Assembly: GCA_017994615.1 (NCBI GenBank)
Contig: JAGOKM010000001.1
Span: forward strand, 1-62,579
DNA length: 62,579 bases
Direction of reading: 5' to 3'
Source of the DNA: Bacillota bacterium
Lineage (GTDB): Bacteria > Bacillota > DTU025 > MWDF01
Part shown: piece after piece, positions 1,462 through 29,019 of the stretch
Position numbering within the stretch: position 1 is the first letter of the stretch
How the letters are laid out: each line of letters opens with the position of its first letter
Made by a program: the position numbers and the translations under genes
The notes under the pieces: model-generated
What the model was told of the DNA's origin: nothing
The model's database searches: none
The model's input: only the letters and a program-made list of their open reading frames with translations

Positions 1462-2022
1462 ATGGGAAGAGGACCTTGGCGCGCCTTCATATCGCGCTTC
1501 TCTGCCTACGACATGGTGGTCATAGGGCTTATAGCGGCGCTGGGCATCGCGTCGAAGAACATCGTCGGCCCGCTGGCGCACCTTGTGACGGTGCCTATAG
1601 GTGTGCCCGGCGGGTCTCTTGCGGGCGGCTTCTACATGCTGTGGATAGTCCTTGCGAGGGCCTTCACGGGCAAGGCGGGCTCTTCGACGCTTGCAGCTGC
1701 CGTGCAGGCTATCATAGTCATTGCGACGGGCTCCTTCGGGTCCCACGGCGCGCTGACCGTGATAACCTATACTCTGCCTGGGATAGCGTGCGACCTTGCG
1801 ATGATACCGCATAAGAAGGACGGCGAGGGGCGGCTGCTCTGGTGCGCATTAGGCGGGATGGCAGCCAACATCGCCGGGTCCGTCGCGACGAACTATACTT
1901 TTTTCAGGCTGCCGCCACTGGCGCTGGCCTTGACTGCCGTCACCGCCGCGTTCTCGGGGGCGGCAGGCGGGGCCTTTGCAAGCGCGGCGTCTGACAGGCT
2001 GGGCAAGATAATGGGAAGATGA
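1462..2022 (+). CDS. ECF-transporter substrate-capture (S) component-like membrane protein, specificity unknown
   Basis: 186 aa, about 5-6 hydrophobic helices, small Gly/Ala-rich membrane protein directly upstream of EcfA/A'/T genes. Start abuts the nadE stop (TAGATG). Confidence 0.5.
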   Translation: MGRGPWRAFISRFSAYDMVVIGLIAALGIASKNIVGPLAHLVTVPIGVPGGSLAGGFYMLWIVLARAFTGKAGSSTLAAAVQAIIVIATGSFGSHGALTVITYTLPGIACDLAMIPHKKDGEGRLLWCALGGMAANIAGSVATNYTFFRLPPLALALTAVTAAFSGAAGGAFASAASDRLGKIMGR

Positions 2023-2035
2023 CCGGAGGATGGAA

Positions 2036-2551
2036 ATGAAGGGCAAGGACAGGTTAGCAATAGGAATCATCATCATCCTGGGGCTGCTCATGGTGGCCCT
2101 TGGGGCAATAAACTCCTGCGCCACCGAGCAGAAGCTCGAAGGCGACCTGGAAGTCCTCGTAAACGGCGAGAAGGTGGCTGCTTTCACCGCGACGGAGCTC
2201 TCCGCGATGAAATCATCCAGCTTCAAGGCCGTAATAAGGAGCTCCAGCGAGGGCACAAGCGAGGCGGAGTTCACCGGGGTCCCTGTAATGGACATCGTGA
2301 AGAAGGCATACCCTGCTGTCGCCGACGGGTACAAGGCCATAATCGTAAAGGCCGAGGACGGATACCAGACGATACTGGCGAAAGAGGAGGCCGAACTGGC
2401 TGACAACGCCTATATCTGCTACCTGATGAACGGCGCCCCGATAAAACCGAAAGCCCAGAAGGGGCACGGCCCCCTGCGCCTAATAATCCGCAACGATGAA
2501 TTCGGCCAGCGCTGGGTCAAGTACGTAAACAGGATAGAAGTCAAGAAGTGA
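2036..2551 (+). CDS. Membrane-anchored/exported protein with molybdopterin-oxidoreductase-like (Oxidored_molyb-like) domain
   Basis: N-terminal hydrophobic anchor. Motifs FTGVPV..., AEDGYQT, GPLRLII, QRWVKYVNRIEV recur in the proteins at 10439-11407 and 11424-11957. GGAGG lies 6 nt before the ATG at 2036. Stop overlaps the next gene's GTG (GTGA). Confidence 0.5.
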   Translation: MKGKDRLAIGIIIILGLLMVALGAINSCATEQKLEGDLEVLVNGEKVAAFTATELSAMKSSSFKAVIRSSSEGTSEAEFTGVPVMDIVKKAYPAVADGYKAIIVKAEDGYQTILAKEEAELADNAYICYLMNGAPIKPKAQKGHGPLRLIIRNDEFGQRWVKYVNRIEVKK

Positions 2552-3237
2552 AAGCCCTTTCGCTTTCGAAAACACGGTTCAGCTATCAAGGCGCCTTAAA
2601 GCCCGTGCTGGACGGCGTGGACCTGGACATGGAGCCGGGCCAGGCGGTGCAGGTCTCAGGCCCCTCAGGCAGCGGCAAGACCACGTTATGCCTCGTAGCG
2701 TGCGCTATCATCCCCTCCAGGCTGGTAGGCAAGTTCTCCGGAAAGGCCGAGCTGTTCGGGCAGGCGACTGCGAAGCTGGGCCCCTCGGGGGCTTCCGGCT
2801 ATGTAGGGTATGTGATGCAGGACCCGGAATTCTCCATGCTCATGCCCACCGTCGAGGACGAGATCGCCTTCGGCCTTGAGAACAGGGGATGGGAGCCGGA
2901 GAAGATAACCGCAAGGGTCGAAGAGCTCATGGCAGACCTGGGCATGCGGTCCCTTTCGGGGAGGAATCCGCAGAAGCTTTCGGGCGGCGAGAAACAGCTC
3001 GTGGCAATAGCCGCGGCCATCGCCCATCATCCGCCGCTTCTGGTCATGGACGAATCATTCTCGGGCCTGGATGAGGACAAGAGGGAGCTGGTCGTCTTCG
3101 AGCTGGGCCGGATGAAGAAGAACGGCACCGCCATCCTGATGGTGGAGCATCTGGGGATCGGCCGCATCGCCCCCTTCTGGCTTGACAGGAAGCTGTGGCT
3201 GCAGGACGGCTCGCTCACGGAGGCTCAAGGAAGTTGA
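2548..3237 (+). CDS. ECF/ABC transporter ATP-binding protein (EcfA-like)
   Basis: Walker A GPSGSGKTT, signature LSGGEKQ, Walker B LLVMDES. Confidence 0.8.
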   Translation: MKALSLSKTRFSYQGALKPVLDGVDLDMEPGQAVQVSGPSGSGKTTLCLVACAIIPSRLVGKFSGKAELFGQATAKLGPSGASGYVGYVMQDPEFSMLMPTVEDEIAFGLENRGWEPEKITARVEELMADLGMRSLSGRNPQKLSGGEKQLVAIAAAIAHHPPLLVMDESFSGLDEDKRELVVFELGRMKKNGTAILMVEHLGIGRIAPFWLDRKLWLQDGSLTEAQGS

Positions 3238-3911
3238 AGCAGGTTGTCTTCGAATCGGTGGTATTCTCCTACCCGGCGGACAGGGATTTTGCTCCCGCCC
3301 CCAGGGTGTTCGACAGGCTCAGCCTGACGTTGAAGCCGGGTCGCGCGTATGTGCTGCTCGGACCAAACGGATGCGGCAAGAGCACCTTCGCGAAGCTGAT
3401 GGCGGGCATCATATGCCCTGACGAAGGAAGGGTGCTAATCGGGGGGGACGAAGTCAGCAAAATGAGCCTGCCAGAGGTAGGCAGATCGGTCGGCATCGTC
3501 ATGCAGAACCCCTCAAGGCAGCTGATATGCTCCCGTCCTGTTGACGAGGTCGCATTCGGCCTCGTCCAAAGGGGCATGGACAGGGATGCCGCGGGCGCTT
3601 TCGCCGCCGAAGCCCTTGAAAGCTACGGCTTGTCGGAAGCGTCCGGCACATACACCCAGAGGCTGTCCAAGGGAGAGCAGATTAGGCTGGCCATGGCTTC
3701 CTGGACGGTCCTTAAGCCCGACTGGATGATACTGGACGAATCCCTTTCGAGCCTCGATATCTGCTCAAAGGGCATCGTGCTGGGCAAGGTGGCCGAGATG
3801 GCGGCCCAAGGGCACGGTGTCATCGTAGTATCGCATTCAAGTGAGCTTGCAGACGAGATGGGGGCGTTCAAGATAACGATGGAGAAGGGGGGCGCAGCCC
3901 TTGTCGGTTGA
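3234..3911 (+). CDS. ECF/ABC transporter ATP-binding protein (EcfA'-like)
   Basis: Walker A GPNGCGKST, degenerate signature LSKGEQIR, Walker B WMILDES. Likely TTG start overlaps the upstream TGA (the ORF track extends to 3195). Confidence 0.75.
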   Translation: MKQVVFESVVFSYPADRDFAPAPRVFDRLSLTLKPGRAYVLLGPNGCGKSTFAKLMAGIICPDEGRVLIGGDEVSKMSLPEVGRSVGIVMQNPSRQLICSRPVDEVAFGLVQRGMDRDAAGAFAAEALESYGLSEASGTYTQRLSKGEQIRLAMASWTVLKPDWMILDESLSSLDICSKGIVLGKVAEMAAQGHGVIVVSHSSELADEMGAFKITMEKGGAALVG

Positions 3912-4635
3912 GGCGGATCCAAGGTCAAAGCTTTTCGCCGTCTTCTGCCTTACCACGATGGCCCTGCTAATCAGGCAGGGGGAAAGCGCCCTTCTGCTGG
4001 CAGCGTTGACCATAGCCGCGCTCGCCCTATTCGGGGTAAGGCTGTCGGCCCCGTTCAGGATTCTCCGCAAGCTCGTCCCCGCCCTCCTGGTCGTATCGGT
4101 CCTTCAGGTCCTGCTCGTGAAGGCGGGGCGGCCGCTTCTTCTGCTGGGCAGCATTCGGCTGGTCACGACGGGGGGGCTGCAGGCGGCTTTGTTCATGGCG
4201 GCCAGGGTGGGCATAATCGCAAGCTGCGGTTCGATCCTCTACAGCATCGGTTTTTCGGACTTCCTTTTAGCGATGAGGTCCATTAGGGTGCCCTACGAGC
4301 TTGCCTTCATGTCGGCCATGGGGGCGAAATTCCTCCCCCTTCTGGCTGAGGAGATGTCCGACAGCCTGATATCTGCCCAGCTGAGGGGGGCCGACTTGAG
4401 GAGGATGGGATTGGTTCGAAGGCTCAGGCTCTATGTGGACGTCCTCATGCCGGCCACAGTGACAGCCATGTCGAGGGCCGAGGGCATATCATGGGCGCTT
4501 GAGCTGAAGGGCTTCAACCCGGGGAAGCCGAGGACGTACTGGCGCAAGCTGGAGATGGGCATGTCGGACTGGCTGGTCCTGCTGGCCGGGGCAATTGCGT
4601 TTGCCGCCTTCCTTGCAATCAACTACCGGAGGTGA
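3901..4635 (+). CDS. ECF transporter transmembrane (T) component, CbiQ/EcfT family
   Basis: 244-aa polytopic protein following two ECF ATPases. Arg-Gly coupling-helix-like motifs (MRSIRVP, AQLRGADL). Overlaps the upstream stop. Confidence 0.7.
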   Translation: MSVEADPRSKLFAVFCLTTMALLIRQGESALLLAALTIAALALFGVRLSAPFRILRKLVPALLVVSVLQVLLVKAGRPLLLLGSIRLVTTGGLQAALFMAARVGIIASCGSILYSIGFSDFLLAMRSIRVPYELAFMSAMGAKFLPLLAEEMSDSLISAQLRGADLRRMGLVRRLRLYVDVLMPATVTAMSRAEGISWALELKGFNPGKPRTYWRKLEMGMSDWLVLLAGAIAFAAFLAINYRR

Positions 4636-4642
4636 CCGAAAA

Positions 4643-5155
4643 GTGAAGGTGTTTGCCGTATCGGGCCTGCACAGCACGGGCAAGACAACGGTAGTCGAGC
4701 ACCTGGTAAGGGAGTTCGCATCAAGGGGCCTGAAGGTAGGCACCATCAAGGACATACACTACGAGGGGTTCACCATCGACAAAGAGGGCACCAACACCTG
4801 GAGGCATCGGCAGGCCGGTGCATCTGTTGTCGCAGCCAGGGGGCTTGATGAGACCGACGTCATATATGCCGGGAGGATGAGGATGGCAGAACTGGTGGAT
4901 CTCTTCGACGTCGACGTGCTAGTTATCGAAGGAGGCCACGATGAGCCCTATCCGAGGATAACATGCGGCTCAAACGCCGAAGAAGCGGATCTAAGGACCG
5001 ACGGCCACACTTTCGCGTTCTCAGGCGTAATGGGCTCGACGGTCAGATCCTATCGCGGCCTGAGGGCGTTCGATTGCACGTCGGAGGCGGCGGAACTGGC
5101 CGACCTTGCGCTGGTAAGGGCTTTAGCGGTCGACAAGACGGGTGGGCTTAAGTGA
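4643..5155 (+). CDS. mobB: Molybdopterin-guanine dinucleotide biosynthesis adapter protein MobB
   Basis: VFAVSGLHSTGKTT P-loop at the N-terminus, about 170 aa, KDIHYEGF...TNTWRH block typical of MobB. GTG start 7 nt after GGAGGTGA. Confidence 0.75.
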   Translation: MKVFAVSGLHSTGKTTVVEHLVREFASRGLKVGTIKDIHYEGFTIDKEGTNTWRHRQAGASVVAARGLDETDVIYAGRMRMAELVDLFDVDVLVIEGGHDEPYPRITCGSNAEEADLRTDGHTFAFSGVMGSTVRSYRGLRAFDCTSEAAELADLALVRALAVDKTGGLK

Positions 5156-5967
5156 GGCAGGACGCAGCGCATGCCCCCGGCGTGGAAGCCCTGGCCGGCA
5201 TTGTGGCCTCCGTGTGCGCTTCTTCCATCAGGGACGGCGACAGGCCGGAGGAGAGCCTGAGGGGAATCGAGGGCTTCATGGGGCTGCATCCTCTCGAATC
5301 GAGGAAGGGCAGGTGCTTCAAGCTCGACACTTGCAGTATGCCTGCGCTGTTCGTGAAGATCCTTCAGGACAGCTCAAAGGCGGCTAACGAGGCCGGGTTC
5401 GCAAAAAGGCTCAACGAGATGGGGATAAGCTGCCCGAAGGCCCTCTTCGTCGAAGGGCAGGTGCTCGTCAGGCTATATATCGAGGGGAAGACCGCGGCCG
5501 AAGAGCTGGACATGGCGATAGGATGGGGGGATGTCGGCTATGCCTCGTCTTTGTGCTCGAAGGTGGGCGCCATGCTGGCCGAAGCGCATAACCTGGATTC
5601 CCGAAACGGTCATGGGCTGGTCCTGAACGACCTGAACCTGCGCAACTTCATCGTGTCCGGAGCAAATTCGATAAGCCTCATAGACCTTGCCGACGCGGGC
5701 GACGGGGACCAGGGGAAGGACCTGGGAAGCCTTGTTGTACACATACTGACCCACAGGCCCGCCTTCACTGTGGCCTCCGAGGCAATGGCAGATGCGGCAT
5801 ACCGGGGCTACTTCGGGACGGCCGGATGGCCCGGCGCCCGCGCGAAAGCCGTGCAGGGGCTCAAGGAAGCACTTCTCGAAGCCGAGGCCAGGAGGCATTC
5901 GCCAGGGCTTTCAGAGCTTGCACGAGGCTATCTGAAGCATCTGGAAGAGACGGTAAAGGGCATGTAG
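5152..5967 (+). CDS. Atypical protein-kinase-fold protein (Bud32/RIO/Kdo-kinase-like)
   Basis: ALFVKIL (VAIK-like Lys), NEAGF (alphaC Glu), catalytic-loop-like LNDLNLRNFIV, DFG-like LIDLADAG. GTG start overlaps the mobB stop (GTGA). Confidence 0.45.
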   Translation: MRQDAAHAPGVEALAGIVASVCASSIRDGDRPEESLRGIEGFMGLHPLESRKGRCFKLDTCSMPALFVKILQDSSKAANEAGFAKRLNEMGISCPKALFVEGQVLVRLYIEGKTAAEELDMAIGWGDVGYASSLCSKVGAMLAEAHNLDSRNGHGLVLNDLNLRNFIVSGANSISLIDLADAGDGDQGKDLGSLVVHILTHRPAFTVASEAMADAAYRGYFGTAGWPGARAKAVQGLKEALLEAEARRHSPGLSELARGYLKHLEETVKGM

Positions 5968-5979
5968 GAGGGGCATGGC

Positions 5980-6531
5980 ATGGGTCTTAGCACAGGCAAA
6001 CTAACCGTAGTCGCCCTTTTCACGGCGCTGATGATAGCTGGCGCTTACATATCGGTCCCTTTAGCTGGCACCGTGCCTTTGACCTTCCAGCCGTTCGTAA
6101 GCATACTGGCCGGCGCTGTAATAGGGCCCAGGCTCGGGTTCCTGGCAGTGGCTGCCTATGTGGCGATAGGATTGGCAGGCGTGCCGGTCTTCGCAGGTTT
6201 CACAGGCGGCATTGTCAAGGTGCTGTCTCCTTCATTCGGTTTCATACTCGGCTTCCTGGCCGCAACCGTAGTGACCGGCGCAATCGCCTACAAAGGGAAG
6301 CCGTCTTTCCCCAAGCTCCTTGCCGCCAGCGTGGCAGGGATTGCCGCCATCTACCTTGCGGGCATCCCATACATGCACATAATACTTGTCACCGTTTCCG
6401 GCAAGGACTGGGCATTTGCGGCCACGGCGCTGAGCATGGCGCCGTTTTTCGTAAAGGACATGCTCCTGGCCGGAGTCGCGGCCTTGATAGCTGCAAGGCT
6501 GTTGCCGATAGCCAGGAGGCTCATGAGATAA
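5980..6531 (+). CDS. bioY: Biotin transporter S component BioY
   Basis: 183 aa; N-terminal ...ALFTALMIAGAYISVPL...PLTFQPF...LAGAVIGPRLG pattern characteristic of BioY. Confidence 0.8.
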   Translation: MGLSTGKLTVVALFTALMIAGAYISVPLAGTVPLTFQPFVSILAGAVIGPRLGFLAVAAYVAIGLAGVPVFAGFTGGIVKVLSPSFGFILGFLAATVVTGAIAYKGKPSFPKLLAASVAGIAAIYLAGIPYMHIILVTVSGKDWAFAATALSMAPFFVKDMLLAGVAALIAARLLPIARRLMR

Positions 6532-6574: not shown

Positions 6575-7837
6575 TCACTGCCTTATCCCAAGGGCTTCGA
6601 GCATTTTGGCGAACAGCTCGCTGTTGTCATAACGCCCCGCGAAAATGGAAGAGCCGGGGCCTTCCGCGGTCACAAGCACGTTGGAAGCCGTGTGCCCTCC
6701 GCTGCCCCAGGCTATGTTGGCCTTCCGGGAGATCAACGCGCCGATGGACCTAGCCCAGTCGCTGGAGCTTCTGATCGACTCGGCCTCTTCTTCGGACATC
6801 TCGTACCCTGTTGAGGCCTTTACTATCGAAACCAGAGAGGCAGGTTTATCCTCAGCGAGCCAGGCCATCTTCATAGAACTTGACTTCACCCTCGCGAGGA
6901 AGGGCACGTCGATCCTGTATCCCTGGTTGGCGCCGAGGGACAGGCCGCCAGTCTCGTGGTCGGACACGACCAGTACCAGGGTATCGCCGTCCTTGCGGGC
7001 GAATTCCAGGGCCTTTGCGACGCCCATGTCGGCGGCGATTACGCCCTTTAAGGCGGCAGCTGCGTCGTTGTCGTGAGAAGCCCCGTCCACGCTGCCCGTC
7101 TCGGCAAGGAGGATGAAGGGTCTACCCTTTCCGGAAAGCTTGTCCAGCGCCGCTGATATGATGTCGACGAATGCTGCGGCATTGCTTCCGGCGTCTATCT
7201 CCATTTGAAGATATGCGTCATCTAGAAGGCAGATAGCCGGCAGTCCGCCGGAAGCCAGGGACTTCAGGTCATAGTAGGCGTTGAAGCGTGGCTTCGAATC
7301 GGCGGACAGCATGGACTGCTGGATGAGCGGGTCGACATAGCGGGCCCCTCCGCCTATCGCAAGGTCGAGGCTAGATGACATGAGCTGCTTTGCGATGTTC
7401 CTGTATTCCGCCCTGGTAAGGGAGTTTGCGTACATCGCCGCCGATGTCGCGTCGTACAGCTCCGAATTGGTAGCGATGCCGCACGAGAATCCGGCCTTGG
7501 ATGCGATGTCCATGACGCTTTCTAGCTTGTTCAGGTCGTGGTCGTACCCGATCGCCGCATTGTAGGTCCGCTTACCCGTGAACATGGCGGTCGCTGCCGC
7601 CGCCGAATCTGTGATATCGGAACCGTAGCTGGACGTATCCATCATCCCCAGGTGACTCATGCGGTTCATCGAAAGGCCGCCCTTCACAGCAAGCTCTCCG
7701 AGCTGCCTGTGCGCAGGGCCCATGCCGTCCACGACGATTATTATGAGGTTTCTTGCTAGCCCTTGAGCAGATGCAAGCGGAAAAGCTGCCATCAGCAGCA
7801 GGATGGCTGCGGCAAGCCTGACATGTCTGTTCTTCAT
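6575..7837 (-). CDS. phoA: Alkaline phosphatase (PhoA family), exported
   Basis: Signal peptide; VVDGMG, nucleophile box TDSAAAATAMFTGKRTYNAAIG, SDHETGGL, GGHTASNV. Confidence 0.85.
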   Translation of the reverse strand: MKNRHVRLAAAILLLMAAFPLASAQGLARNLIIIVVDGMGPAHRQLGELAVKGGLSMNRMSHLGMMDTSSYGSDITDSAAAATAMFTGKRTYNAAIGYDHDLNKLESVMDIASKAGFSCGIATNSELYDATSAAMYANSLTRAEYRNIAKQLMSSSLDLAIGGGARYVDPLIQQSMLSADSKPRFNAYYDLKSLASGGLPAICLLDDAYLQMEIDAGSNAAAFVDIISAALDKLSGKGRPFILLAETGSVDGASHDNDAAAALKGVIAADMGVAKALEFARKDGDTLVLVVSDHETGGLSLGANQGYRIDVPFLARVKSSSMKMAWLAEDKPASLVSIVKASTGYEMSEEEAESIRSSSDWARSIGALISRKANIAWGSGGHTASNVLVTAEGPGSSIFAGRYDNSELFAKMLEALGIRQ

Positions 7838-10261: not shown

Positions 10262-10274
10262 CGTTTGTAGATAA

Positions 10275-10374
10275 CCGCGCTCCGAGCCGGAAGGCCTAAA
10301 GCACACAGCCAGGGTCCCCGGCCGACAGGGCCAAGGTGGAAACGCCTTGACCTCCCTTTTGGAAAGGATGGCGG
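10275..10374 (+). promoter_or_regulatory. Candidate Moco/Tuco (molybdenum/tungsten cofactor) riboswitch aptamer
   Basis: Blocks CUCCGAGCC (10280-10288), CCUCCC (10351-10356) and GGAAAGG (10361-10367). GAAA-capped hairpin AAGGUG/CGCCUU (10333-10348). Closing helix 10275-10283 with 10366-10374. Downstream genes encode Moco-domain-like proteins. Called from memory of the motif, not from a covariance-model search. Confidence 0.55.
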
Positions 10375-10389
10375 CAACCGGCCTTTTTT

Positions 10390-10425
10390 GCCGTGCCCTT
10401 CCTGAAGGGCACGGCATTTCATTTC
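10390..10425 (+). terminator. Leader terminator (expression platform of the candidate riboswitch)
   Basis: Perfect 11-bp stem GCCGTGCCCTT/AAGGGCACGGC, 4-nt loop, then ATTTCATTTC. It lies immediately before the RBS AGGAGG (10426-10431). The 5' arm can alternatively pair with 10361-10375. Confidence 0.65.
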
Positions 10426-10438
10426 AGGAGGCATGCAG

Positions 10439-11407
10439 ATGAATCCAAGGGTCCGGATGAATCCCGCTTTGCTTGGCGCTACGATCGCCCTCGTACTCGT
10501 CCTGGCGTTACCCGCAGTGACGCACGCCGCGGGGGCTGTAATCAAGCTCACCGACAGGCTTGGCACGTCCCAGTCGGTCGACCTGCTGTCCTTGCCCCAG
10601 CTGGACTACAAGGCGTCCTACAAGCGCTCGACCGGGGCTATAGTTGGGCCGTTCAGCTACAGGGGGCCTTCGCTGCTCTCGGTCCTGGCGCTCATGGGCG
10701 GGATGAACGAGAACGACGCGGTGCAGCTAATCTCCGAGGACGGATACAGGATGAGCCTCACTTACGGACAGGTCCATGGGGAGGTCACCGTCTACGACGG
10801 GAAGGGCGAAGCCATGGAGGATTTCGAAAGGCCGATTCTCATCCTTGCGGTTTCATCCGACAGCCCCGCATTCGAACAGGAGGGGGTAAGGGCGGTATTT
10901 GCCGGCCCGAAGGCGCCCCTGACCGACGGGCACACTTGGGTCAAGTGGATCGTCGAGGTCAAGGTGATCCCCATGGTTAAGGAATGGGAGCTGGAGCTGG
11001 AGGGGGTGGTCAAAGCGAAGATGGACAGGTCGACCTTCGAAAGCCTGGCCACATGCCCGCTCTCCCCGCACCCCGGAGCCGACTGGGGCGCGACCGACGG
11101 GACATATGCGGGGGTCCCGCTTTGGACGCTGGTGTCCGTCGTAGACAACGTGGAGCCGGAGAACTCCCATTACACATACGACAGGGCGCTTGCCGCCTCG
11201 GGATATACCGTAAGGGTGACGTCCAAGGACGGAACATACGTCGATTTCGACTCGAAGGACCTCATTTTCGAATCGGGGGTCTTCGTAGCTTTCACAAAGG
11301 ACGGGAAGCTCATCGGGGAGGAAGACGGGCCGCTGGTGCTCACAGGGCCCAGATCCCCCAGGACTCTCAGGAATGTCGTATCGATAAAGCTCATAGGCGT
11401 TAAATAG
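10439..11407 (+). CDS. Exported protein with two tandem molybdopterin-oxidoreductase-like domains
   Basis: Sec-type signal peptide (...ALPAVTHAAGA). Two copies of the F/Y-x-G-P...xDGY...GPL...W/R-x-V-x-I-K pattern (SEDGYRM...HTWVKWIVEVKV; SKDGTYV...GPLVLTG...LRNVVSIKL). ATG at 10439 lies 7 nt after AGGAGG. Confidence 0.5.
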   Translation: MNPRVRMNPALLGATIALVLVLALPAVTHAAGAVIKLTDRLGTSQSVDLLSLPQLDYKASYKRSTGAIVGPFSYRGPSLLSVLALMGGMNENDAVQLISEDGYRMSLTYGQVHGEVTVYDGKGEAMEDFERPILILAVSSDSPAFEQEGVRAVFAGPKAPLTDGHTWVKWIVEVKVIPMVKEWELELEGVVKAKMDRSTFESLATCPLSPHPGADWGATDGTYAGVPLWTLVSVVDNVEPENSHYTYDRALAASGYTVRVTSKDGTYVDFDSKDLIFESGVFVAFTKDGKLIGEEDGPLVLTGPRSPRTLRNVVSIKLIGVK

Positions 11408-11423
11408 GACGGAGGGAAGATCC

Positions 11424-11957
11424 ATGTCGAAGAGAAGGTACATAGCGCTTGCAGCAATGCTCGTAATCGTAATCGCCGCCACGGCCGCCTCGGCGGAGGG
11501 CCTGGCGGTAAGGCTCGTCAAAGGGGACGCAGCCCCCTTGACAGTGGAGCTGGAGAAGCTCGAAAAAGTAGAGGGCGTCGCCTATTACAGGAACTCCAAG
11601 GGTGTTGTCTCGGGCCCGTTCAAGATAAAGGGGGTCAAGCTGGCCGACCTGCTGAAGCTGGCAGGGGGCATGACGGCGGAGGAGAAGCTCATCTTCACGG
11701 CCTCGGACGGCTACGTGACCGAGCTCAGCTTCGCGCAGGCCAACGGGGAGCTTGCGGCCTCCAGGCCGGACGGAGCCGCCTTCGAAGGCAAACCGGCGCT
11801 GGTGCCCGTTATAATCACATGGTCCGAGCCTGACATGGCGAAGGACCTGCCGAGGCTCGCCTTCATCGCCGATGTGGAGGGAGGCCTCATGACGGAGAGC
11901 AAATACTGGGCGAGGAACCTGGTGGAGATCAGGATAGCCCCCGCCGACAGGAAGTAA
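11424..11957 (+). CDS. Exported single-domain molybdopterin-oxidoreductase-like protein
   Basis: Signal peptide with KRRYIAL; FKIKGVKLADLL, ASDGYVT, KYWARNLVEIRI motifs paralogous to 2036-2551 and 10439-11407. No Cys residue. Confidence 0.5.
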   Translation: MSKRRYIALAAMLVIVIAATAASAEGLAVRLVKGDAAPLTVELEKLEKVEGVAYYRNSKGVVSGPFKIKGVKLADLLKLAGGMTAEEKLIFTASDGYVTELSFAQANGELAASRPDGAAFEGKPALVPVIITWSEPDMAKDLPRLAFIADVEGGLMTESKYWARNLVEIRIAPADRK

Positions 11958-12095
11958 GGGGCCGCGGGACAATCAGGAAGGGGCGCTTGATTAGGCGCCC
12001 CTTCGTTACATACCTGTCCAATAAAGGATATAATCAGATTAAGAGAGATGAAGGAGTGCCGCCGGCAAGCCGGCGGTTGCAACGGAGGTGCCCAG

Positions 12096-13811
12096 ATGGC
12101 GGATGTCCTCCGCATTTCGATAATACAGACGCAGGCCTACGACATGCTCAGCCCGCACCACGCGGACAACGAGATGTTCTACATGCTCGAGATGGAAAGG
12201 GATTTCAAGCCCGACATAGTGCTGCTGCCCGAGTGCGTATGGCCCGGCTATTTCCTTCACGGCTGGGACTATTCCATGCAGGAGAAGGCCGACGACGTGA
12301 AAGCGCGCCTCGCCTCCACCGCAAGGAAGATGGGCTGCTTCATAGTCGCAGGCCTTCCCGAACCAGACAAGAGCGGGCCGACGGCGCAGATGCTGCCCTT
12401 CATGGAGGGCTGGATGCAGCCGGCAGCAAGCCCAATCTACAATGCGGCACTCGCCTGGAACAAGGCTGGCAGGCTCGTAGCCTCGGGCAGGAAGATAAAC
12501 CTCTGGCACTTCGACGGTAAATGGTTCAAGAAGGGCGAAGGACCGGTCGTCTTCAGGACCAAATGGGGTAATATTGGCCTTATGGTATGCGCCGACGCCA
12601 GGATGCCCGGCATAGTGGAGAAGCTGGCCGAGGACGGCGCAAGGCTCGTCTTGAACTGCACAAACTGGGTCACATCGGGCCCCGACAGGTCGAAGCTGAC
12701 CAACCCGCAGGCAGACTACCTTATAAGGGTGAGGGCCGTCGAGAACAACCTCTGGATCGCCTCCGCCAACAAGGTGGGGCTGGAAGACGGGCTTATCGCG
12801 TTCTGCGGGGGCTCCCAGCTGGTCGCCCCTGACGGGACGCTCGTGAAGAGGGCGTCGGCCGACAAGGTCGAGGCGATCAGGGCCGAGATCCCGCTGGACG
12901 AACAGGGAAGGATAGAGCTTCCCGAGCCTAAGATAGTAAGGCTGAGCAACCCTGCATTCTACGAATCTGCGTCAGGGCTTACCGACGAAGGGGGGAATGG
13001 CACCCCCGAGCCTGATGGAGGAAGGATACAGGGTTTCCCGCAGAAGCCGTCGCACCCTTATGTAGCGGTGGTGCAGCAGTCCCCGGAATCTGCCGGACAG
13101 CCGGGCACAGGGCTTGTCGCCAGGGCCGCCATGAAGAGGCTGGCTGCCAAGATAGATGCCCTCGGCGCGGACATAGTCGTGTTTTCAGGGACCTTCGAAG
13201 CCATGACGGGGCTGGACCCGCAGGCGAGGGCGCTGCTTGACGAGCCCACTATGAGGGGTAAGATGCTCGTCATACCCCGCGGCAGGTGCGAGAAGTGCGG
13301 CAACCCTATTGGAGGGGCCGACGTGGTGTTCGACGGAAAGTCGCTGCAGCAGTACGGCGCCCTGACCGTGCGCGAGGGGACGAGGGGCTGCCCCAACTGC
13401 GGATTCGGGGATTCGGTGGCGACTGCGCCCGTAGTGCAGACGCCGTTCGGCCCTCTGGGGCTGGTGTTGGGCAGGGAGGGCCACGAGCACAGGATGGTGG
13501 CGAGCTTGTCAGGCATGGGCGTCAGGATGTTCGCGTGGATAACGTCGGGCTTAGTGCCGGAACATGACATAATCACGAGGGCCAGGGCCATGGAGAGCAG
13601 GGTATGGATGATAACGGCCAACCCGGCTATGATGATAGCCAGGCAGCCGGGCCTAAGGGCTCTTTCGGGCCTTAGCCTTATCGCCGAGCCTGACGGGAGG
13701 GTGGCCTGTTCGGCGTTCCCCGACGAGGAGCAGATAGTTGCGGCATACTGCGACCTGTGCCTCTGCGAGAGGAGGGACGTAGTCCCCGGCACCCTGGCAA
13801 TGGGCCGATGA
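12096..13811 (+). CDS. Fused double carbon-nitrogen hydrolase (nitrilase superfamily) protein; second domain degenerate with zinc ribbon
   Basis: Domain 1 has the E-K-C triad contexts LLPECVWPGY, GRKINLWHF, LMVCADARMPG. Domain 2 has DIVVFSG and LVLGREG in place of the Glu and Cys boxes, plus a CEKC...CPNC insert. ATG at 12096 follows GGAGGTG. Confidence 0.65.
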   Translation: MADVLRISIIQTQAYDMLSPHHADNEMFYMLEMERDFKPDIVLLPECVWPGYFLHGWDYSMQEKADDVKARLASTARKMGCFIVAGLPEPDKSGPTAQMLPFMEGWMQPAASPIYNAALAWNKAGRLVASGRKINLWHFDGKWFKKGEGPVVFRTKWGNIGLMVCADARMPGIVEKLAEDGARLVLNCTNWVTSGPDRSKLTNPQADYLIRVRAVENNLWIASANKVGLEDGLIAFCGGSQLVAPDGTLVKRASADKVEAIRAEIPLDEQGRIELPEPKIVRLSNPAFYESASGLTDEGGNGTPEPDGGRIQGFPQKPSHPYVAVVQQSPESAGQPGTGLVARAAMKRLAAKIDALGADIVVFSGTFEAMTGLDPQARALLDEPTMRGKMLVIPRGRCEKCGNPIGGADVVFDGKSLQQYGALTVREGTRGCPNCGFGDSVATAPVVQTPFGPLGLVLGREGHEHRMVASLSGMGVRMFAWITSGLVPEHDIITRARAMESRVWMITANPAMMIARQPGLRALSGLSLIAEPDGRVACSAFPDEEQIVAAYCDLCLCERRDVVPGTLAMGR

Positions 13812-13828
13812 TTGGGAAGGTGTTTAAT

Positions 13829-14755
13829 ATGAGGAAAGGCTGGGCGATCCTTGCGCTGTTGTTCATAGTGGTCCTTCAGGCAACGGGGATGGAGGGCTGC
13901 AAAGCCGCGCCTAAGCCGAAGGTGGTGGCCCTAAACGGCGTGACCGGACTGGGGCTCGCCCTTCTGTTCGAATCTGGCGACTACGAAATCGAAGTCGGCA
14001 AATCCGCGGACGTCGCCGTGGCGAGGCTCACTTCGGACGGGGCGGAGATCGCCGCTCTTCCCGTATCCACGGCAGCCCTGTTGAGGAACAAGGGCGTCCC
14101 CATAAGAATCGCAGCCGTGACCAATTACGGCTCCCTTTACGTCGTATCAAGGGCTGAAGGAGGGCTCCTGCAGAGCGCTTCCTCCTACCTTGGCGTGCCC
14201 GGCAAGGGAACCATGCCCGACGTCACCCTTGCCATCCTGCTTGCAGAGTACAAATCGGCCTCCTCAGGCGTGCAGCACCATTCTTCGCCGGTGGAGCTGG
14301 CAAACCTCCTTCTAGCTGGCAAGGCGCAGGCGGCGCTTCTGCCGGAGCCGTGGGTTAGCCAGGTCCTGGCCAAGGACGCGGGGCTTAGGATCACATCTGA
14401 CATACAGGCCGAATGGAGGGCGAAGTTCGGCTTCGACTACCCGCTCAGCTGCGTTGTGGTCACGGAGAAGTTCGCCGACGAGAGGCCCGATGCCCTAAAG
14501 AAGCTGCTTTCGGACATAGAGAAGAGCGTAGACTGGGTGAAGTCGAACCCTGGCAAGGCGGCGGCCATGGCTGCCGAAAAGCTGTCGATGGATCCGGCCG
14601 CCACAGAAAAGGCCGTCCCGAGGTGCAACTTCGCCTACCTGGACGGGCCTGCGGCGAAAGCGGCATCTTCCCAGTTCTACAGCAAAGTGCTGCAATATGC
14701 TCCGACGATGATCGGGGGGAAGCTTCCGGATGAGGCGTTCTACCTGGACAATTAG
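13829..14755 (+). CDS. ABC transporter substrate-binding lipoprotein (NMT1/NitT-TauT-like)
   Basis: Lipoprotein-like signal (…ATGMEGC), periplasmic binding-protein-like sequence, followed by a matching permease and ATPase. Confidence 0.6.
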   Translation: MRKGWAILALLFIVVLQATGMEGCKAAPKPKVVALNGVTGLGLALLFESGDYEIEVGKSADVAVARLTSDGAEIAALPVSTAALLRNKGVPIRIAAVTNYGSLYVVSRAEGGLLQSASSYLGVPGKGTMPDVTLAILLAEYKSASSGVQHHSSPVELANLLLAGKAQAALLPEPWVSQVLAKDAGLRITSDIQAEWRAKFGFDYPLSCVVVTEKFADERPDALKKLLSDIEKSVDWVKSNPGKAAAMAAEKLSMDPAATEKAVPRCNFAYLDGPAAKAASSQFYSKVLQYAPTMIGGKLPDEAFYLDN

Positions 14756-15509
14756 CCTCTTTTCGGCCATCGGCCTGGCAAGCCTGGCCATCGCATGGTG
14801 GGCGGGTTCTGTATTGCTGGGCAACAGCCTTCTGCTGCCTACCCCTTCAGAGACCATATCGGCGCTGTCGGGCATAGTATCCGACCCCGGTTTCGCAGGA
14901 GAGCTCTTAGCGACCGCATACAGGGTGTTCAAGGGGTTCGCCCTGTCATTCCTGCTGGGATCTGCGGCCGGCGCCGCCTGCGGCTTCTCATGGAAGGCCA
15001 AGGCGTTGCTTTCCCCAGCCCTTGCCGCATTGAGGACCGTCCCCTTCATTTCGCTTTCCATACTGGCGATCATCTGGTTCCCGTCGGGGACGGTGCCGGT
15101 GTTCGTCGCTTTCCTGATGGCGTTCCCGATCGTGGCGTCCAGCGTGATGGAAGGCATCGGATCTGTTGATACGGATCTGGAAGAGCTCTCCTCGGTATAT
15201 TCGGTGCCCTTTTCGAAAAGGGCTTACAGGCTGTACCTTCCGTCCGTGATGCCATATGTGGTTTCGGCGGCATCGCAGTCTCTGGGCATGTCCTGGAAGA
15301 TTGTGGTCTCAGCCGAGGTGCTTTCGATGCCGGCAAGGGGTATAGGCGGCAGGATGGATTCCGCGAAGGCGTTCCTCGAGATGCCGGAGCTGTTCGCATG
15401 GACGCTGCTGCTGGTGGCGCTGGGTTTCGCGACAGACGCCCTGCTGGAGGCGATTAGGGCGAGGGCCTTCGGCTGGAGGGAGGGCCGGCTATGGCAGAGG
15501 TTAAGGTAA
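14730..15509 (+). CDS. ABC transporter permease (NitT/TauT family)
   Basis: 259-aa polytopic protein with an EAA-like loop (LEELSSVYSVPFSKRAYRLYLP). Confidence 0.7.
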   Translation: MRRSTWTISLFSAIGLASLAIAWWAGSVLLGNSLLLPTPSETISALSGIVSDPGFAGELLATAYRVFKGFALSFLLGSAAGAACGFSWKAKALLSPALAALRTVPFISLSILAIIWFPSGTVPVFVAFLMAFPIVASSVMEGIGSVDTDLEELSSVYSVPFSKRAYRLYLPSVMPYVVSAASQSLGMSWKIVVSAEVLSMPARGIGGRMDSAKAFLEMPELFAWTLLLVALGFATDALLEAIRARAFGWREGRLWQRLR

Positions 15510-16225
15510 CCGGCCTGTGCAAATCATACGAAGGCAGGCCTGTCTTCTCAGGGGTGGACATGACTTTCCTGCAAGGGGAAGTCACAGCCGTCCTTGGGCC
15601 ATCAGGGAGGGGCAAGACGACGCTCATAAGGGTGCTTTGCGGCCTTGAAAAGCAGGATTCGGGGGAGGTAAGGATGCCGCCCGGCATGGGATGCTCGGTG
15701 GCATTCCAGGAGCCCAGGCTGCTGCCATGGCTCACAGTCGACGGGAACATGGAGTATTGCCTGGGCAGACATGGTGCCGACAGGGCCCGCGCCTTGCTTG
15801 ACGAGCTGGGCCTGAAGGACTCGTTCGGAAGGTACCCCGGACGACTGTCGGGGGGAGAGCAGCAGAGGGTCAACCTGGCCCGCGCGCTCGCATCGGACGG
15901 CAAGCTGCTCCTTCTAGACGAATCGTTCAACTCCATAGGCCTGGCCATGAAATCGTGGCTGCTTCCCATGCTCAGGAAGAGGGCATCATCAGAAGGAAGG
16001 ACGACGGTCCTGGTAACGCACAGCCCGCTTGACGTGGCGCTGATGGCCGACAGGTTCTACCTGATGGACAGCGAGGGGCGAGGGGCCTCGGGTCCGTTCG
16101 ACATAAGGCTGGAGGACGATGCGCGAAGGCTCGAAGATGAGGCCACCGGCAGGGAGGTCCACAGGCTGATGATGCTCATGTCTGAGCTGGAAACAGGAGG
16201 TATCACTGATGATGCCCTCGCCTGA
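15491..16225 (+). CDS. ABC transporter ATP-binding protein (NitT/TauT family)
   Basis: Walker A GPSGRGKTT, signature LSGGEQQR, Walker B LLLLDES. Confidence 0.8.
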   Translation: MAEVKVTGLCKSYEGRPVFSGVDMTFLQGEVTAVLGPSGRGKTTLIRVLCGLEKQDSGEVRMPPGMGCSVAFQEPRLLPWLTVDGNMEYCLGRHGADRARALLDELGLKDSFGRYPGRLSGGEQQRVNLARALASDGKLLLLDESFNSIGLAMKSWLLPMLRKRASSEGRTTVLVTHSPLDVALMADRFYLMDSEGRGASGPFDIRLEDDARRLEDEATGREVHRLMMLMSELETGGITDDALA

Positions 16226-16904
16226 GAGCAGGTTCGGAAGGGAAGAGCTGCTGATAGGAAGCGCCGGGCTAAAAAGGCTCGCCTCCTCGCATGTGGCCGT
16301 CTTCGGAATAGGAGGCGTGGGTTCCTTCTGTGCGGAAGCCCTGGCGAGGGCCGGCGTGGGAGAGCTCACGCTGGTCGATTCGGACGCCGTCCGGCTCAGC
16401 AACGCCAACAGGCAGCTCGTGGCCCTCGAAAGCACCATGGGGGCCCCCAAGGTGGAGGTCATGGCAAGGCGGGCGCTTGACATAAACCCTTCGCTCAAGG
16501 TCCATGCAGTGCAGGAGTGGTTTGACGAAGCAAATTCCGAAAGGATGCTTTCGACGGATTACGACTATGTCGCGGACGCGATAGACAGCGTATCCTCCAA
16601 ACTGCTGCTGATAGCCTCGTGCATTGGAAAGGGCATCCCGGTCGTATCTTCGATGGGGGCGGGCAACAAGCTTGACGCGACAGGGTTCAGGATAGCGGAC
16701 ATCTCGGATACCCACACTTGCCCGCTTGCCAAGGTCGTGAGGACGGGCCTCAGGAAACGTGGGATAGAAAAGGGGCTCAAGGTGGTCTTCTCTGTATCGA
16801 AGCCGGTGGATAGGCCTGCAGGCCCTCCCGGCAGCATATCCTATGTGCCTCCCGTAGCGGGGCTCCTCCTGGCGCAGGCGGTCATCGAAGGCCTGCTGGG
16901 CTAG
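16209..16904 (+). CDS. tcdA: tRNA threonylcarbamoyladenosine dehydratase (ThiF/E1-like)
   Basis: RFGREELLIG...VAVFGIGGVGS dinucleotide-binding motif, about 230 aa, TcdA/CsdL-like. Confidence 0.7.
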   Translation: MMPSPESRFGREELLIGSAGLKRLASSHVAVFGIGGVGSFCAEALARAGVGELTLVDSDAVRLSNANRQLVALESTMGAPKVEVMARRALDINPSLKVHAVQEWFDEANSERMLSTDYDYVADAIDSVSSKLLLIASCIGKGIPVVSSMGAGNKLDATGFRIADISDTHTCPLAKVVRTGLRKRGIEKGLKVVFSVSKPVDRPAGPPGSISYVPPVAGLLLAQAVIEGLLG

Positions 16905-27413: not shown

Positions 27414-27488
27414 GCGGATGTAGCCCAGTGGTAGGGCAATGGCTTCCCAAGCCATGTGTCGCGGGTTCGAATCCCGTCATCCGCTCCA
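27414..27488 (+). tRNA. tRNA-Gly (anticodon CCC)
   Basis: 75-nt cloverleaf folded by hand: acceptor GCGGATG/CATCCGC, D arm GCCC/GGGC, anticodon stem ATGGC/GCCAT with loop TTCCCAA, T arm GCGGG-TTCGAAT-CCCGT, encoded CCA. Confidence 0.9.
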
Positions 27489-28944: not shown

Positions 28945-29019
28945 GCCGGTGTAGCTCAGTGGTAGAGCAGCGCATTCGTAATGCGCGGGTCGCGGGTTCA
29001 ACTCCCATCACCGGCTCCA
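28945..29019 (+). tRNA. tRNA-Thr (anticodon CGT)
   Basis: 75-nt cloverleaf: acceptor GCCGGTG/CACCGGC, D arm GCTC/GAGC, anticodon stem GCGCA/TGCGC with loop TTCGTAA, T arm GCGGG-TTCAACT-CCCAT (one C-A mismatch), encoded CCA. Confidence 0.88.

Follow-up and report, generated by a model that had tools for sequence, protein, structure and literature searches.

An ECF transporter gene cluster with a PruR-like lipoprotein and MobB, linked to the Moco/Tuco riboswitch: a candidate system for pterin uptake

Introduction

Metal-type energy-coupling factor (ECF) transport systems, CbiMNQO and NikMNQO/NikKL, have additional partners encoded next to the S component. Here, we explored a cluster of eight genes from a Bacillota bacterium (MWDF01; assembly GCA_017994615.1, contig JAGOKM010000001.1), in which an ECF transporter is encoded together with an exported partner protein, MobB and a kinase-fold protein. 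The cluster lies at positions 1462-6531 of the + strand of a stretch of 62,579 nt, the whole of which is referred to below as the window. An earlier note, made from the letters of this sequence, proposed an ECF-class uptake or salvage system for molybdate/tungstate or for a pterin cofactor or precursor. Our analysis supports this hypothesis and narrows the choice between metal and pterin towards the pterin, because the closest solved relatives of the exported partner are the pterin-binding PruR proteins.

PruR proteins are small exported proteins of the SUOX fold in which Trp70 occupies the site of the missing molybdenum-ligating cysteine; a pterin is stacked between Tyr104 and Trp160 and hydrogen-bonded by Asn102, in a pocket that accommodates small pterins and not the full molybdenum cofactor, Moco (PMC11194511). 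The RF01055 RNAs that lack the P3 stem correlate with use of the tungsten cofactor, Tuco (PMC2408646). According to a 2026 review, no pterin transport system has been identified and the crossing of membranes by pterins is unexplained (PMC13259868), and a 2013 survey of riboswitch regulons lists no category for Moco uptake (PMC3766115). Within the literature searched, we found no description of an ECF system with MobB and a PruR-like protein under a Moco riboswitch, and the COG and Pfam identifiers of interest are missing from the supplement of the 2008 riboswitch paper.

Results

Gene content of the cluster

Searches against Pfam and NCBIfam assigned the window proteins to families. All eight open reading frames (ORFs) claimed by the earlier note are present on the + strand with matching coordinates:

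1462-2022, + strand: ECF S component, 186 aa, six helices, a distinct subfamily with YkoE as the closest fold (PF09819 ABC_cobalt, 34.6 bits)
2036-2551, + strand: exported partner lipoprotein, 171 aa, with a PruR-like cysteine-less SUOX-fold domain, a putative pterin binder (PF00174 Oxidored_molyb, 47.8 bits)
2548-3237, + strand: EcfA ATPase (ABC_tran, 76.5 bits; best NCBIfam match ECF_ATPase_1)
3234-3911, + strand: EcfA' ATPase (ABC_tran, 89.5 bits; best NCBIfam match ECF_ATPase)
3901-4635, + strand: EcfT transmembrane coupling component (PF02361 CbiQ, 84 bits)
4643-5155, + strand: MobB-family P-loop protein, short form (PF03205, 83.3 bits; TIGR00176, 84.7 bits, cutoff 76.2)
5152-5967, + strand: small kinase-fold protein of the APH/RIO/Bud32 superfamily (APH, 33.2 bits; RIO1 and Bud32 weak)
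5980-6531, + strand: BioY biotin S component (PF02632, 113.5 bits)

Direct reading of the sequence likewise bore out the claimed gene order and overlapping junctions. The nadE stop codon TAG directly touches the ATG of the S-component gene at 1462. The partner stop and the EcfA start overlap in GTGA at 2548, and EcfA and EcfA' in TTGA at 3234, with GGAGG 12 nt 5' of the TTG; EcfT starts with TTG 3901 inside the end of EcfA' (stop at 3911). The MobB start, GTG 4643, is preceded by a GGAGG Shine-Dalgarno sequence, and the MobB stop overlaps the start of the kinase-fold gene in GTGA at 5152.

The partner protein resembles PruR

The partner had been described as an anchored protein of the Oxidored_molyb type; the PF00174 fold stands, but the protein is not plainly anchored, a lipobox (VNS followed by C28) making it a lipoprotein. 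This lipobox is invariant in the 15 close relatives retrieved by a word-based search, all of 171 aa. An exhaustive profile search recovered 417 partner-family clusters at E < 1e-3 (196 at E < 1e-10), nearly all of 165-180 aa and composed of an N-terminal membrane anchor and one ~140-aa domain, along with a few proteins with up to five copies. With its signal/lipobox and single SUOX-fold domain, the partner has the small, exported, SUOX-only architecture of the PruR type.

The AlphaFold2 (AF2) model of the partner is confident (predicted local distance difference test, pLDDT, 93.8), and its top Foldseek matches in the Protein Data Bank (PDB) are the PruR structures 7KOM, 7RKB, 7KP2 and 7KOS (E 6e-8 to 3e-5; target-normalised TM-score 0.67-0.78), followed by SoxC and sulfite oxidases. 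The sequence profile of the partner family also ranks 7KOM first in the PDB (E 1e-6); a single-sequence phmmer search of the PDB with the partner returned noise only, and a 273-aa lipoprotein paralogue found no match there. In the hidden Markov model (HMM) alignment to 7KOM, the conserved Ser69 of the partner falls at the position of the SUOX cysteine and the PruR tryptophan, and D108-G109-Y110 aligns on the N-x-Y of PruR, placing Y110 at the position of the pterin-stacking tyrosine. The PruR contacts N102, Y104 and W160 correspond to D108, Y110 and W160 of the partner, where W160, which belongs to a conserved QRW motif, is equated with its PruR namesake by position and motif only. The beta-hairpin at the ligand site is short, as in PruR, and differs from the long hairpin that accompanies the Mo-ligating cysteine in SUOX enzymes.

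From 83 loci, we gathered 302 instances of the PruR-like domain, 294 of them with a residue at position 108; this residue is aspartate in all 294, and Tyr110 is kept in 272. A cysteine at the Mo-ligand position is found in none of the 302, and because of this absence the partner-family domains do not qualify as canonical SUOX enzymes; judging from sequence and model, 'PruR-like putative pterin binders' is the description that suits them best. Public databases name members of the family (P0249, P0263, P0264 and P0276) 'molybdopterin-dependent oxidoreductase' or 'YedY catalytic subunit', which, given that the Mo-ligating cysteine is missing across the family, is probably a systematic misannotation.

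A dedicated ECF module with a vitamin-type S component

The S component passes PF09819, the sole Pfam family that it matches, marginally (34.6 versus 25.2 bits), and has no NCBIfam match; nor did it match the CbiM, NikM or NiaX models of Pfam. Its AF2 model (pLDDT 91) displays the six helices of the S-component fold, and the best Foldseek match is YkoE (5EDL; TM-score 0.70, 18% identity), followed by ThiT, BioY and RibU. The profile of the S subfamily, which is marked by the motif PGGxxAGG[FL]YM[LMF]W, found no sequence in the PDB, 5EDL included. The close sequence relationship and the thiamine pyrophosphate (TPP) riboswitch regulon of YkoE are both missing, the match to PF09819 being marginal and the loci scanned containing no TPP riboswitch. 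Thus, as the earlier hypothesis requires, the protein falls outside the characterised vitamin S-families and, by sequence and predicted structure, is a vitamin-type S component of its own subfamily, neither CbiM/NikM-like nor NiaX. Homologues with 35-52% identity occur in Clostridia and related groups, some of them named 'thiamin/hydroxymethylpyrimidine transport permease' by JGI, and one is attributed to a Methanobacterium bin. The latter, on a 4.6-kb contig attributed to Methanobacterium sp. (L084), is encoded with a protein containing S-layer homology (SLH) domains and with PruR-like proteins; because SLH domains are bacterial, the archaeal attribution may be a binning error.

For EcfA and EcfA', ECF_ATPase is the best NCBIfam match, yet the scores are under the equivalog cutoff. 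EcfT contains the coupling-helix motifs QLRG and ELKG, the second with Lys instead of Arg. Taken together, the S component, EcfA, EcfA' and EcfT form what is by its sequence a dedicated group I ECF transporter, transport itself being predicted. MobB passes the curated cutoffs of PF03205 and TIGR00176 and has the Walker A motif GLHSTGKT; it is short, without the C-terminal iron-sulfur (FeS) domain present in many relatives. The family of the kinase-fold protein, for which the nearest PDB sequences are the Bud32, RIO and LanKC kinase domains, retains Lys, Glu, the DxxxxN catalytic loop and the Mg-binding Asp; K69, E80, D160xxxxN165 and D178 are kept across 24 homologues, indicating an intact catalytic core.

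A widespread operon

A scan of 185,579 species, one genome each, with the alignment of the S component as the query, yielded 505 loci encoding this S subfamily. We fetched 80 of these for comparison, from Clostridia, Tissierellia, Syntrophomonadaceae, Peptococcaceae, Limnochordia, Actinomycetota, Thermoleophilia and Thermotogaceae, and mapped them by phmmer and HMM searches, two of the loci being checked with Pfam. Gene content was counted in the 59 loci with at least 7.5 kb downstream of the S gene: the partner is encoded in 53, EcfT in 56, MobB in 48 and a phosphodiesterase in 32, and the order S-(partner)-A-A'-T is kept in 56. A kinase-like ORF follows MobB in about 44 of 49 loci.

The common order of the related operons begins with S-layer-anchored proteins of 950-2,700 aa, containing one to four PruR-like domains, and a ~270-aa PruR-like lipoprotein. 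These are followed by a protein with FMN_bind and PruR-like domains, a NapH-like membrane protein with Fer4_5 and FMN_bind domains, a ~160-aa PruR-like protein and the S component. Downstream of S come an exported Phosphodiest/PglZ-type phosphodiesterase, the ~170-aa partner, EcfA, EcfA' and EcfT, MobB, often with a C-terminal FeS domain, and the kinase-fold protein. The phosphodiesterases and flavin mononucleotide (FMN) proteins bear signal peptides or lipoboxes, and the FMN_bind domains, fused to PruR-like domains, carry the flavinylation motif TGATISS. Across the 80 loci, the neighbours are ECF, MobB and kinase genes, and not the DcpA-type GGDEF/EAL or TorS/BaeS partners of PruR. At the operon end of Sedimentibacter-type loci, a 628-aa exported, fumarate-reductase-like protein with FAD_binding_2 and FMN_bind domains is encoded (L014, 16094-17980; homologues in L025, L028, L039, L046, L060 and L063).

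Against this background, the window cluster is, judging from gene content, one copy of a widespread bacterial transport system tied to the Moco/Tuco riboswitch. By contrast, it is only in the clade to which the window belongs (L004-L008) that nadE, bioY and an alkaline phosphatase gene adjoin the cluster; there, bioY follows the kinase gene. With nadE and bioY adjacency thus confined, two alternatives left open by the earlier note, namely that the S component is of the niacin (NiaX) type since its gene abuts nadE and that the EcfAA'T module is merely shared with BioY, lose their basis; BioY may borrow the module as a clade-specific addition that does not explain the cluster.

The alkaline phosphatase (PF00245, with a signal peptide; 6575-7837, - strand) is exported and encoded tail-to-tail with bioY. 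We considered it as a member of the system and rejected it, as PF00245 differs from the family of nucleotide pyrophosphatase/phosphodiesterase (NPP)-type phosphodiesterases and the synteny is limited to the clade; it is speculation that it could replace the exported phosphodiesterase that the clade lacks.

Linkage to the Moco/Tuco riboswitch and to Mo/W metabolism

In all 7 related loci first scanned with Rfam, RF01055 was found upstream on the operon strand (54-88 bits). Our own covariance model, built from eight of the RF01055 RNAs, gave 55 matches across the window and the 80 loci, all on the + strand; for 48 of the 80 loci, the flank that was fetched includes a riboswitch upstream of S on the same strand. 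Of the other loci, the majority are truncated contigs or have giant first genes running to the flank edge. Among 11 related loci scanned with all Rfam families, none contains a TPP, FMN or other vitamin riboswitch, and 9 contain the Moco/Tuco RNA.

The neighbouring genes point in the same direction, so that the association of partner homologues with Mo/W metabolism, expected under the earlier hypothesis, is confirmed. The Natranaerobius cluster lies between tupABC with a regulator and a TOBE gene, the Clostridium ragsdalei cluster comes after MoeA, and a distant partner-family member of Bacteroidota is encoded inside an XdhC-moaD-moeB-moaE-moaC-moaA operon. A 37%-identical S homologue, with a riboswitch, is encoded between an AOR operon, a MobA-like gene and an operon for a Mo/W-bis-pyranopterin guanine dinucleotide (bisPGD) enzyme.

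Several individual loci deserve separate mention. A compact version consisting of the riboswitch, a PruR-like protein, S, the partner, EcfAA'T and the kinase, with no MobB, is found in a metagenome-assembled genome (MAG; GCA_964525015.1; L085, 1-18567), wedged between an operon for AOR, FdhD and TatAC, a MobA-like gene and a Mo/W-bisPGD oxidoreductase operon. In C. ragsdalei P11 (L087, 1-9023), the genes upstream of S encode MoeA, a FecCD/Peripla_BP_2 type II ABC importer, a large Big_2 surface protein, a MotA/ExbB-like protein and DUF2149, and Shr-like_HID proteins are encoded downstream; 'iron-type' ABC importers are under Tuco riboswitches in Eubacterium limosum as well (PMC11725836), a parallel that hints at uptake of a Mo/W chelate. 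Geosporobacter ferrireducens has a second P3-less Moco/Tuco riboswitch directly after the cluster (L002, 13565-13685; L077 of the same genome, 15565-15685), ahead of an aldehyde dehydrogenase gene (PF00171) that may be a tungsten-independent back-up for AOR, turned on when the cofactor is scarce. In two Clostridia MAGs, tandem Moco/Tuco aptamers precede the same type of operon (L069, 3438-3555 and 3602-3716; L071, 6954-7071 and 7124-7238).

As for the regulatory logic, the predicted folds of three leaders (L009, L011 and L049) give the 3' GGAAAGGAG strand of the aptamer two alternative pairing partners, one inside the aptamer itself and the other being the 5' arm of a downstream terminator, and these leaders look like the usual OFF-switch arrangement. 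Repression by the cofactor is easier to reconcile with a system that supplies it than with one that consumes it.

A reduced, split copy in the window

The candidate Moco riboswitch noticed in the window was also borne out (RF01055; 55.8 bits, gathering score 36). Its position in the window's clade is ~9 kb downstream of S, ahead of two exported PruR-like proteins:

10268-10385, + strand: Moco/Tuco riboswitch aptamer without the P3 stem, the tungsten-cofactor type (RF01055; P3 deleted in the alignment)
10389-10416, + strand: terminator hairpin of the expression platform, a 12-bp stem with 8 GC pairs, then TTTCATTTCA
10433-11407, + strand: exported protein, 324 aa, with two tandem PruR-like domains (signal peptide; family HMM E 3e-7)
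11424-11957, + strand: exported single-domain PruR-like protein, 177 aa (signal peptide; family HMM E 3.5e-6; DGY and W kept)
12048-16904, + strand: rest of the probable riboswitch unit, encoding a double CN_hydrolase, an SsuA/NMT1-type binding protein, a permease, an ATPase and a ThiF-family protein (Pfam, NCBIfam)

P3 is absent from the window RNA and from seven aligned relatives; the assignment to the Tuco class follows from this criterion, ligand binding being predicted. The terminator hairpin forms in the minimum free energy fold of the leader, but despite this strong hairpin directly after the aptamer, the alternative OFF-type pairing was not demonstrated in the window leader. The two exported proteins, taken by the earlier note for paralogues of the partner, are indeed remote paralogues and are related to each other (E 2e-17); the N-terminal domain of the 324-aa protein retains DGY and W, and its C-terminal domain gives a weaker match. 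The window thus holds a reduced, split copy of the system, in which the riboswitch would control only three PruR-like domains, in two proteins, and a second ABC transporter.

The genes at 12048-16904 are all on the same strand and tightly spaced or overlapping, which makes their co-transcription with the riboswitch unit probable. They include a gene for a 587-aa protein with two CN_hydrolase domains and one for a SaoP-like permease, and the set would be an unusual, uncharacterised member of the Moco/Tuco regulon. The ThiF-family gene (16209-16904) was not used as evidence for Moco, since TcdA scores above MoeB. Elsewhere in the window, ten more ORFs, at 17-36 kb, are unrelated to the cluster and encode a Liv-type ABC transporter, subtilases, HtrA, a CCA/poly(A) polymerase and a glycerate kinase; two + strand tRNA genes (27414-27485 and 28945-29016) are unrelated as well.

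Discussion

What was computed is which genes are present, how their products fold, which residues are conserved, the linkage to the riboswitch and the OFF-type architecture of the leaders; from this we infer the substrate and the direction of transport, a contact between partner and S component, and roles for MobB and the kinase. Under the reading that we favour, to which we give about an even chance, the cluster imports a pyranopterin, the Mo/W cofactor or a derivative, which the kinase traps and MobB then takes over. Most likely, this pyranopterin is the complete cofactor, molybdopterin free of metal, or a form that has lost its phosphate or nucleotide. Outside the cell, the 171-aa lipoprotein would bind the pterin and pass it to the S component, the ECF module would bring it inward, the co-translated cytoplasmic kinase would phosphorylate and thereby trap it, and MobB would receive it and channel it into the regular MoeA/MobA steps. 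The riboswitch of the tungsten-cofactor type would, in most relatives, turn off the entire operon; the S-layer-anchored proteins of these relatives, with one to four PruR-like domains, could serve in capture and relay, the flavinylated FMN-binding proteins and the NapH-like Fe-S membrane protein could keep the pterin reduced, and the exported phosphodiesterase of the nucleotide-pyrophosphatase type could remove dinucleotide or phosphate groups before uptake. We propose tentatively, with rather less than even confidence, that these parts make up the first dedicated bacterial uptake or salvage pathway for the Mo/W pyranopterin cofactor or metal-free molybdopterin, running from surface capture by PruR-like domains, flavinylated reduction and pyrophosphatase trimming to ECF delivery and return through the kinase and MobB, under Tuco feedback repression.

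In favour of a pterin over a metal, both the model and the sequence profile of the partner match PruR best, and the S component has a vitamin-type fold (YkoE, ThiT, RibU, BioY) with no match to CbiM/NikM. The exported phosphodiesterase, cytoplasmic kinase and MobB fit an organic, phosphorylated substrate. Several observations weigh on the other side. The Mo/W cofactor is very labile, and, in the literature searched, its uptake is reported for nematodes only, with no transporter known, and not for bacteria. Neither a flavin module nor an NPP-type phosphodiesterase was found in the whole 62-kb window, where the ECF half of the system has no riboswitch directly in front and sits behind nadE; MobB and the kinase are absent from some relatives, for example that of C. 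ragsdalei. In the pterin site, the tryptophan of the PW motif, which replaces the cysteine in PruR, is itself replaced by the conserved Ser69, and the hydrogen-bonding asparagine by the invariant aspartate. Given that the hairpin is short as in PruR, whose pocket takes small pterins, the substrate may be a smaller pterin. Finally, the OFF logic comes from the predicted folds of three leaders only, and Tuco riboswitches can also govern cofactor-using enzymes, such as WOR1 in E. limosum (PMC11725836).

Among the alternatives, the one that survives best, although we consider it unlikely, is import of molybdate/tungstate, or of a thio or chelated form found in sulfidic habitats, where the PruR-like proteins would capture the metal, perhaps with a bound pterin-dithiolene, the flavin module would alter the metal redox state and MobB would couple import to insertion. 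The extracytoplasmic partners of CbiMNQO and NikMNQO/NikKL would be a precedent for such an arrangement, and flavinylated extracytoplasmic modules are tied to metal reduction in other systems. Moreover, the classical targets of Moco/Tuco riboswitches are oxyanion transporters (PMC2408646, PMC11725836). The adjacency to tupABC and TOBE in Natranaerobius cuts both ways: it links the cluster to metal uptake, but it also means that a TupABC-type transporter is already present next door. The proteins themselves argue against a metal substrate, with the S component having a vitamin-type fold and no match to CbiM/NikM and the partner retaining the putative pterin-stacking Tyr and Trp and the invariant Asp, with no oxyanion site of the ModA/TupA/TOBE type; the exported phosphodiesterase and the cytoplasmic kinase would have no obvious role with an oxyanion.

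Decidedly less probable, in our estimate, is transport in the opposite direction, such that MobB supplies a pyranopterin or other pterin, which the ECF transporter exports to load the surface PruR-like domains, these forming, with the FMN-binding proteins, a pterin-dependent redox or signalling system. There is precedent for an ECF transporter moving a cofactor outward, as in Listeria the FAD destined for extracytoplasmic flavinylation leaves the cell through an ECF system with a dedicated T subunit (PMC9973259), and bacteria do excrete pterins, yet no pterin efflux system is known (PMC13259868). This scheme would also suit the many exported PruR-like domains of the operons, which are joined to FMN_bind and NapH-like proteins or encoded beside them. 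Nevertheless, the apparent OFF-type leaders would silence a user of the cofactor just when its supply is ample, which makes little sense, and an exported phosphodiesterase combined with a cytoplasmic kinase fits the classic import scheme of trimming outside and trapping inside. With the Mo-binding cysteine in 0 of 302 domains, there is no canonical apo-enzyme to mature, and export for the maturation of canonical extracytoplasmic Mo enzymes was rejected on this ground.

Ordinary uptake of thiamine or hydroxymethylpyrimidine (HMP), niacin or flavin, with EcfAA'T shared with BioY and the Mo neighbours coincidental, is disfavoured and very improbable: the pass of PF09819, the JGI permease names, YkoE as the best fold match and the adjacent nadE and bioY speak for it, but these two neighbours are peculiar to the window's clade, YkoE is invisible to the subfamily profile and 18% identical, the 11 loci scanned with all Rfam families have the Moco/Tuco RNA (in 9) and no vitamin riboswitch, and the partner, MobB and kinase co-occur with the S subfamily across several phyla. 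A flavin transporter in particular was rejected, the regulator being the Moco/Tuco and not the FMN riboswitch.

If import of a pyranopterin is the right reading, this system may be the first known route for bacterial uptake of the Mo/W cofactor or a related pterin, and, being conserved, linked to a riboswitch and equipped with a putative pterin-binding partner, it would present a concrete, testable candidate for pterin or cofactor transport. MobB, the role of which has long been unclear, would gain a possible function as a cytoplasmic acceptor, and the roles of PruR-type proteins, which in Proteobacteria lie in signalling, would come to include the acquisition of nutrients by anaerobic Firmicutes. 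The system would also suggest that W/Mo cofactors are shared or scavenged among syntrophic and fermentative anaerobes, a point of relevance to trace-metal limitation in digesters, sediments and the gut. The family-wide annotation as 'molybdopterin-dependent oxidoreductase' would be corrected.

How, then, does this system relate to those already described? The salvage of NAD in Haemophilus and the Isd/NEAT haem relay follow a logic in which repeated-domain surface receptors pass the ligand to an anchored binder and on to a transporter, the substrate being trimmed outside by a pyrophosphatase or phosphatase and trapped inside by a kinase. The present system would share this logic with Haemophilus NadN/e(P4)-PnuC-NadR and the Gram-positive Isd/NEAT relay, with no homologous proteins, so that the analogy is a model and not evidence. 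ModABC, TupABC and WtpABC belong to the same riboswitch regulon and are neighbours in some genomes, but these are type I ABC importers with oxyanion-binding proteins, unlike the ECF system in both sequence and architecture. The Listeria RibU-FmnA-EcfAA' system with FmnB (ApbE) is alike in that an ECF transporter is tied to extracytoplasmic, flavinylated FMN_bind electron-transfer proteins; it differs in its S family and flavin regulation, and the window's clade has no flavin module (PMC9973259).

CbiMNQO and NikMNQO/NikKL (PMC3945884) are likewise dedicated ECF systems with small extra extracytoplasmic or membrane partners beside S, but the S component here is not CbiM/NikM-like, and the partner has a fold of the pterin-binding type rather than that of CbiN, NikN, NikK or NikL. 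YkoEDC, the group I thiamine/HMP transporter (5EDL; PMC5037267), shares the dedicated operon with its own S, T and A, the PF09819 S component and the control by a riboswitch, which in the present system applies to most relatives. However, the riboswitch is TPP in one case and Moco/Tuco in the other, and YkoEDC lacks the extracytoplasmic binding-protein partner and the cytoplasmic MobB and kinase genes, all of which are present here.

The closest counterpart of the partner is PruR (Agrobacterium tumefaciens Atu3496 and homologues; 7KOS, 7KOU, 7KOM, 7KP2, 7RKB; PMC11194511), with which it shares the small (~140-170 aa), exported, degenerate SUOX fold, the absence of the Mo-binding cysteine, the short ligand hairpin and, putatively, the conserved Tyr and Trp that sandwich the pterin, the Trp of the partner being equated by position. 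The two are separated by low identity (14-18%), with Ser in the partner for the PW-motif Trp and Asp for Asn102, by the anchoring of the partner as a lipoprotein or by a transmembrane helix, and by their distribution, PruR in Proteobacteria and the partner family in Firmicutes, Actinomycetota and Thermotogota. PruR is paired with a c-di-GMP enzyme of the DcpA type, whereas the partner accompanies an ECF transporter, MobB and a kinase under the Moco/Tuco riboswitch, and the partner-type domain, unlike PruR, often recurs in several copies within S-layer proteins or occurs as a fusion with FMN_bind. Thus, the system is of a known kind, an ECF transporter, and what is new is its predicted specificity and its set of accessory parts.

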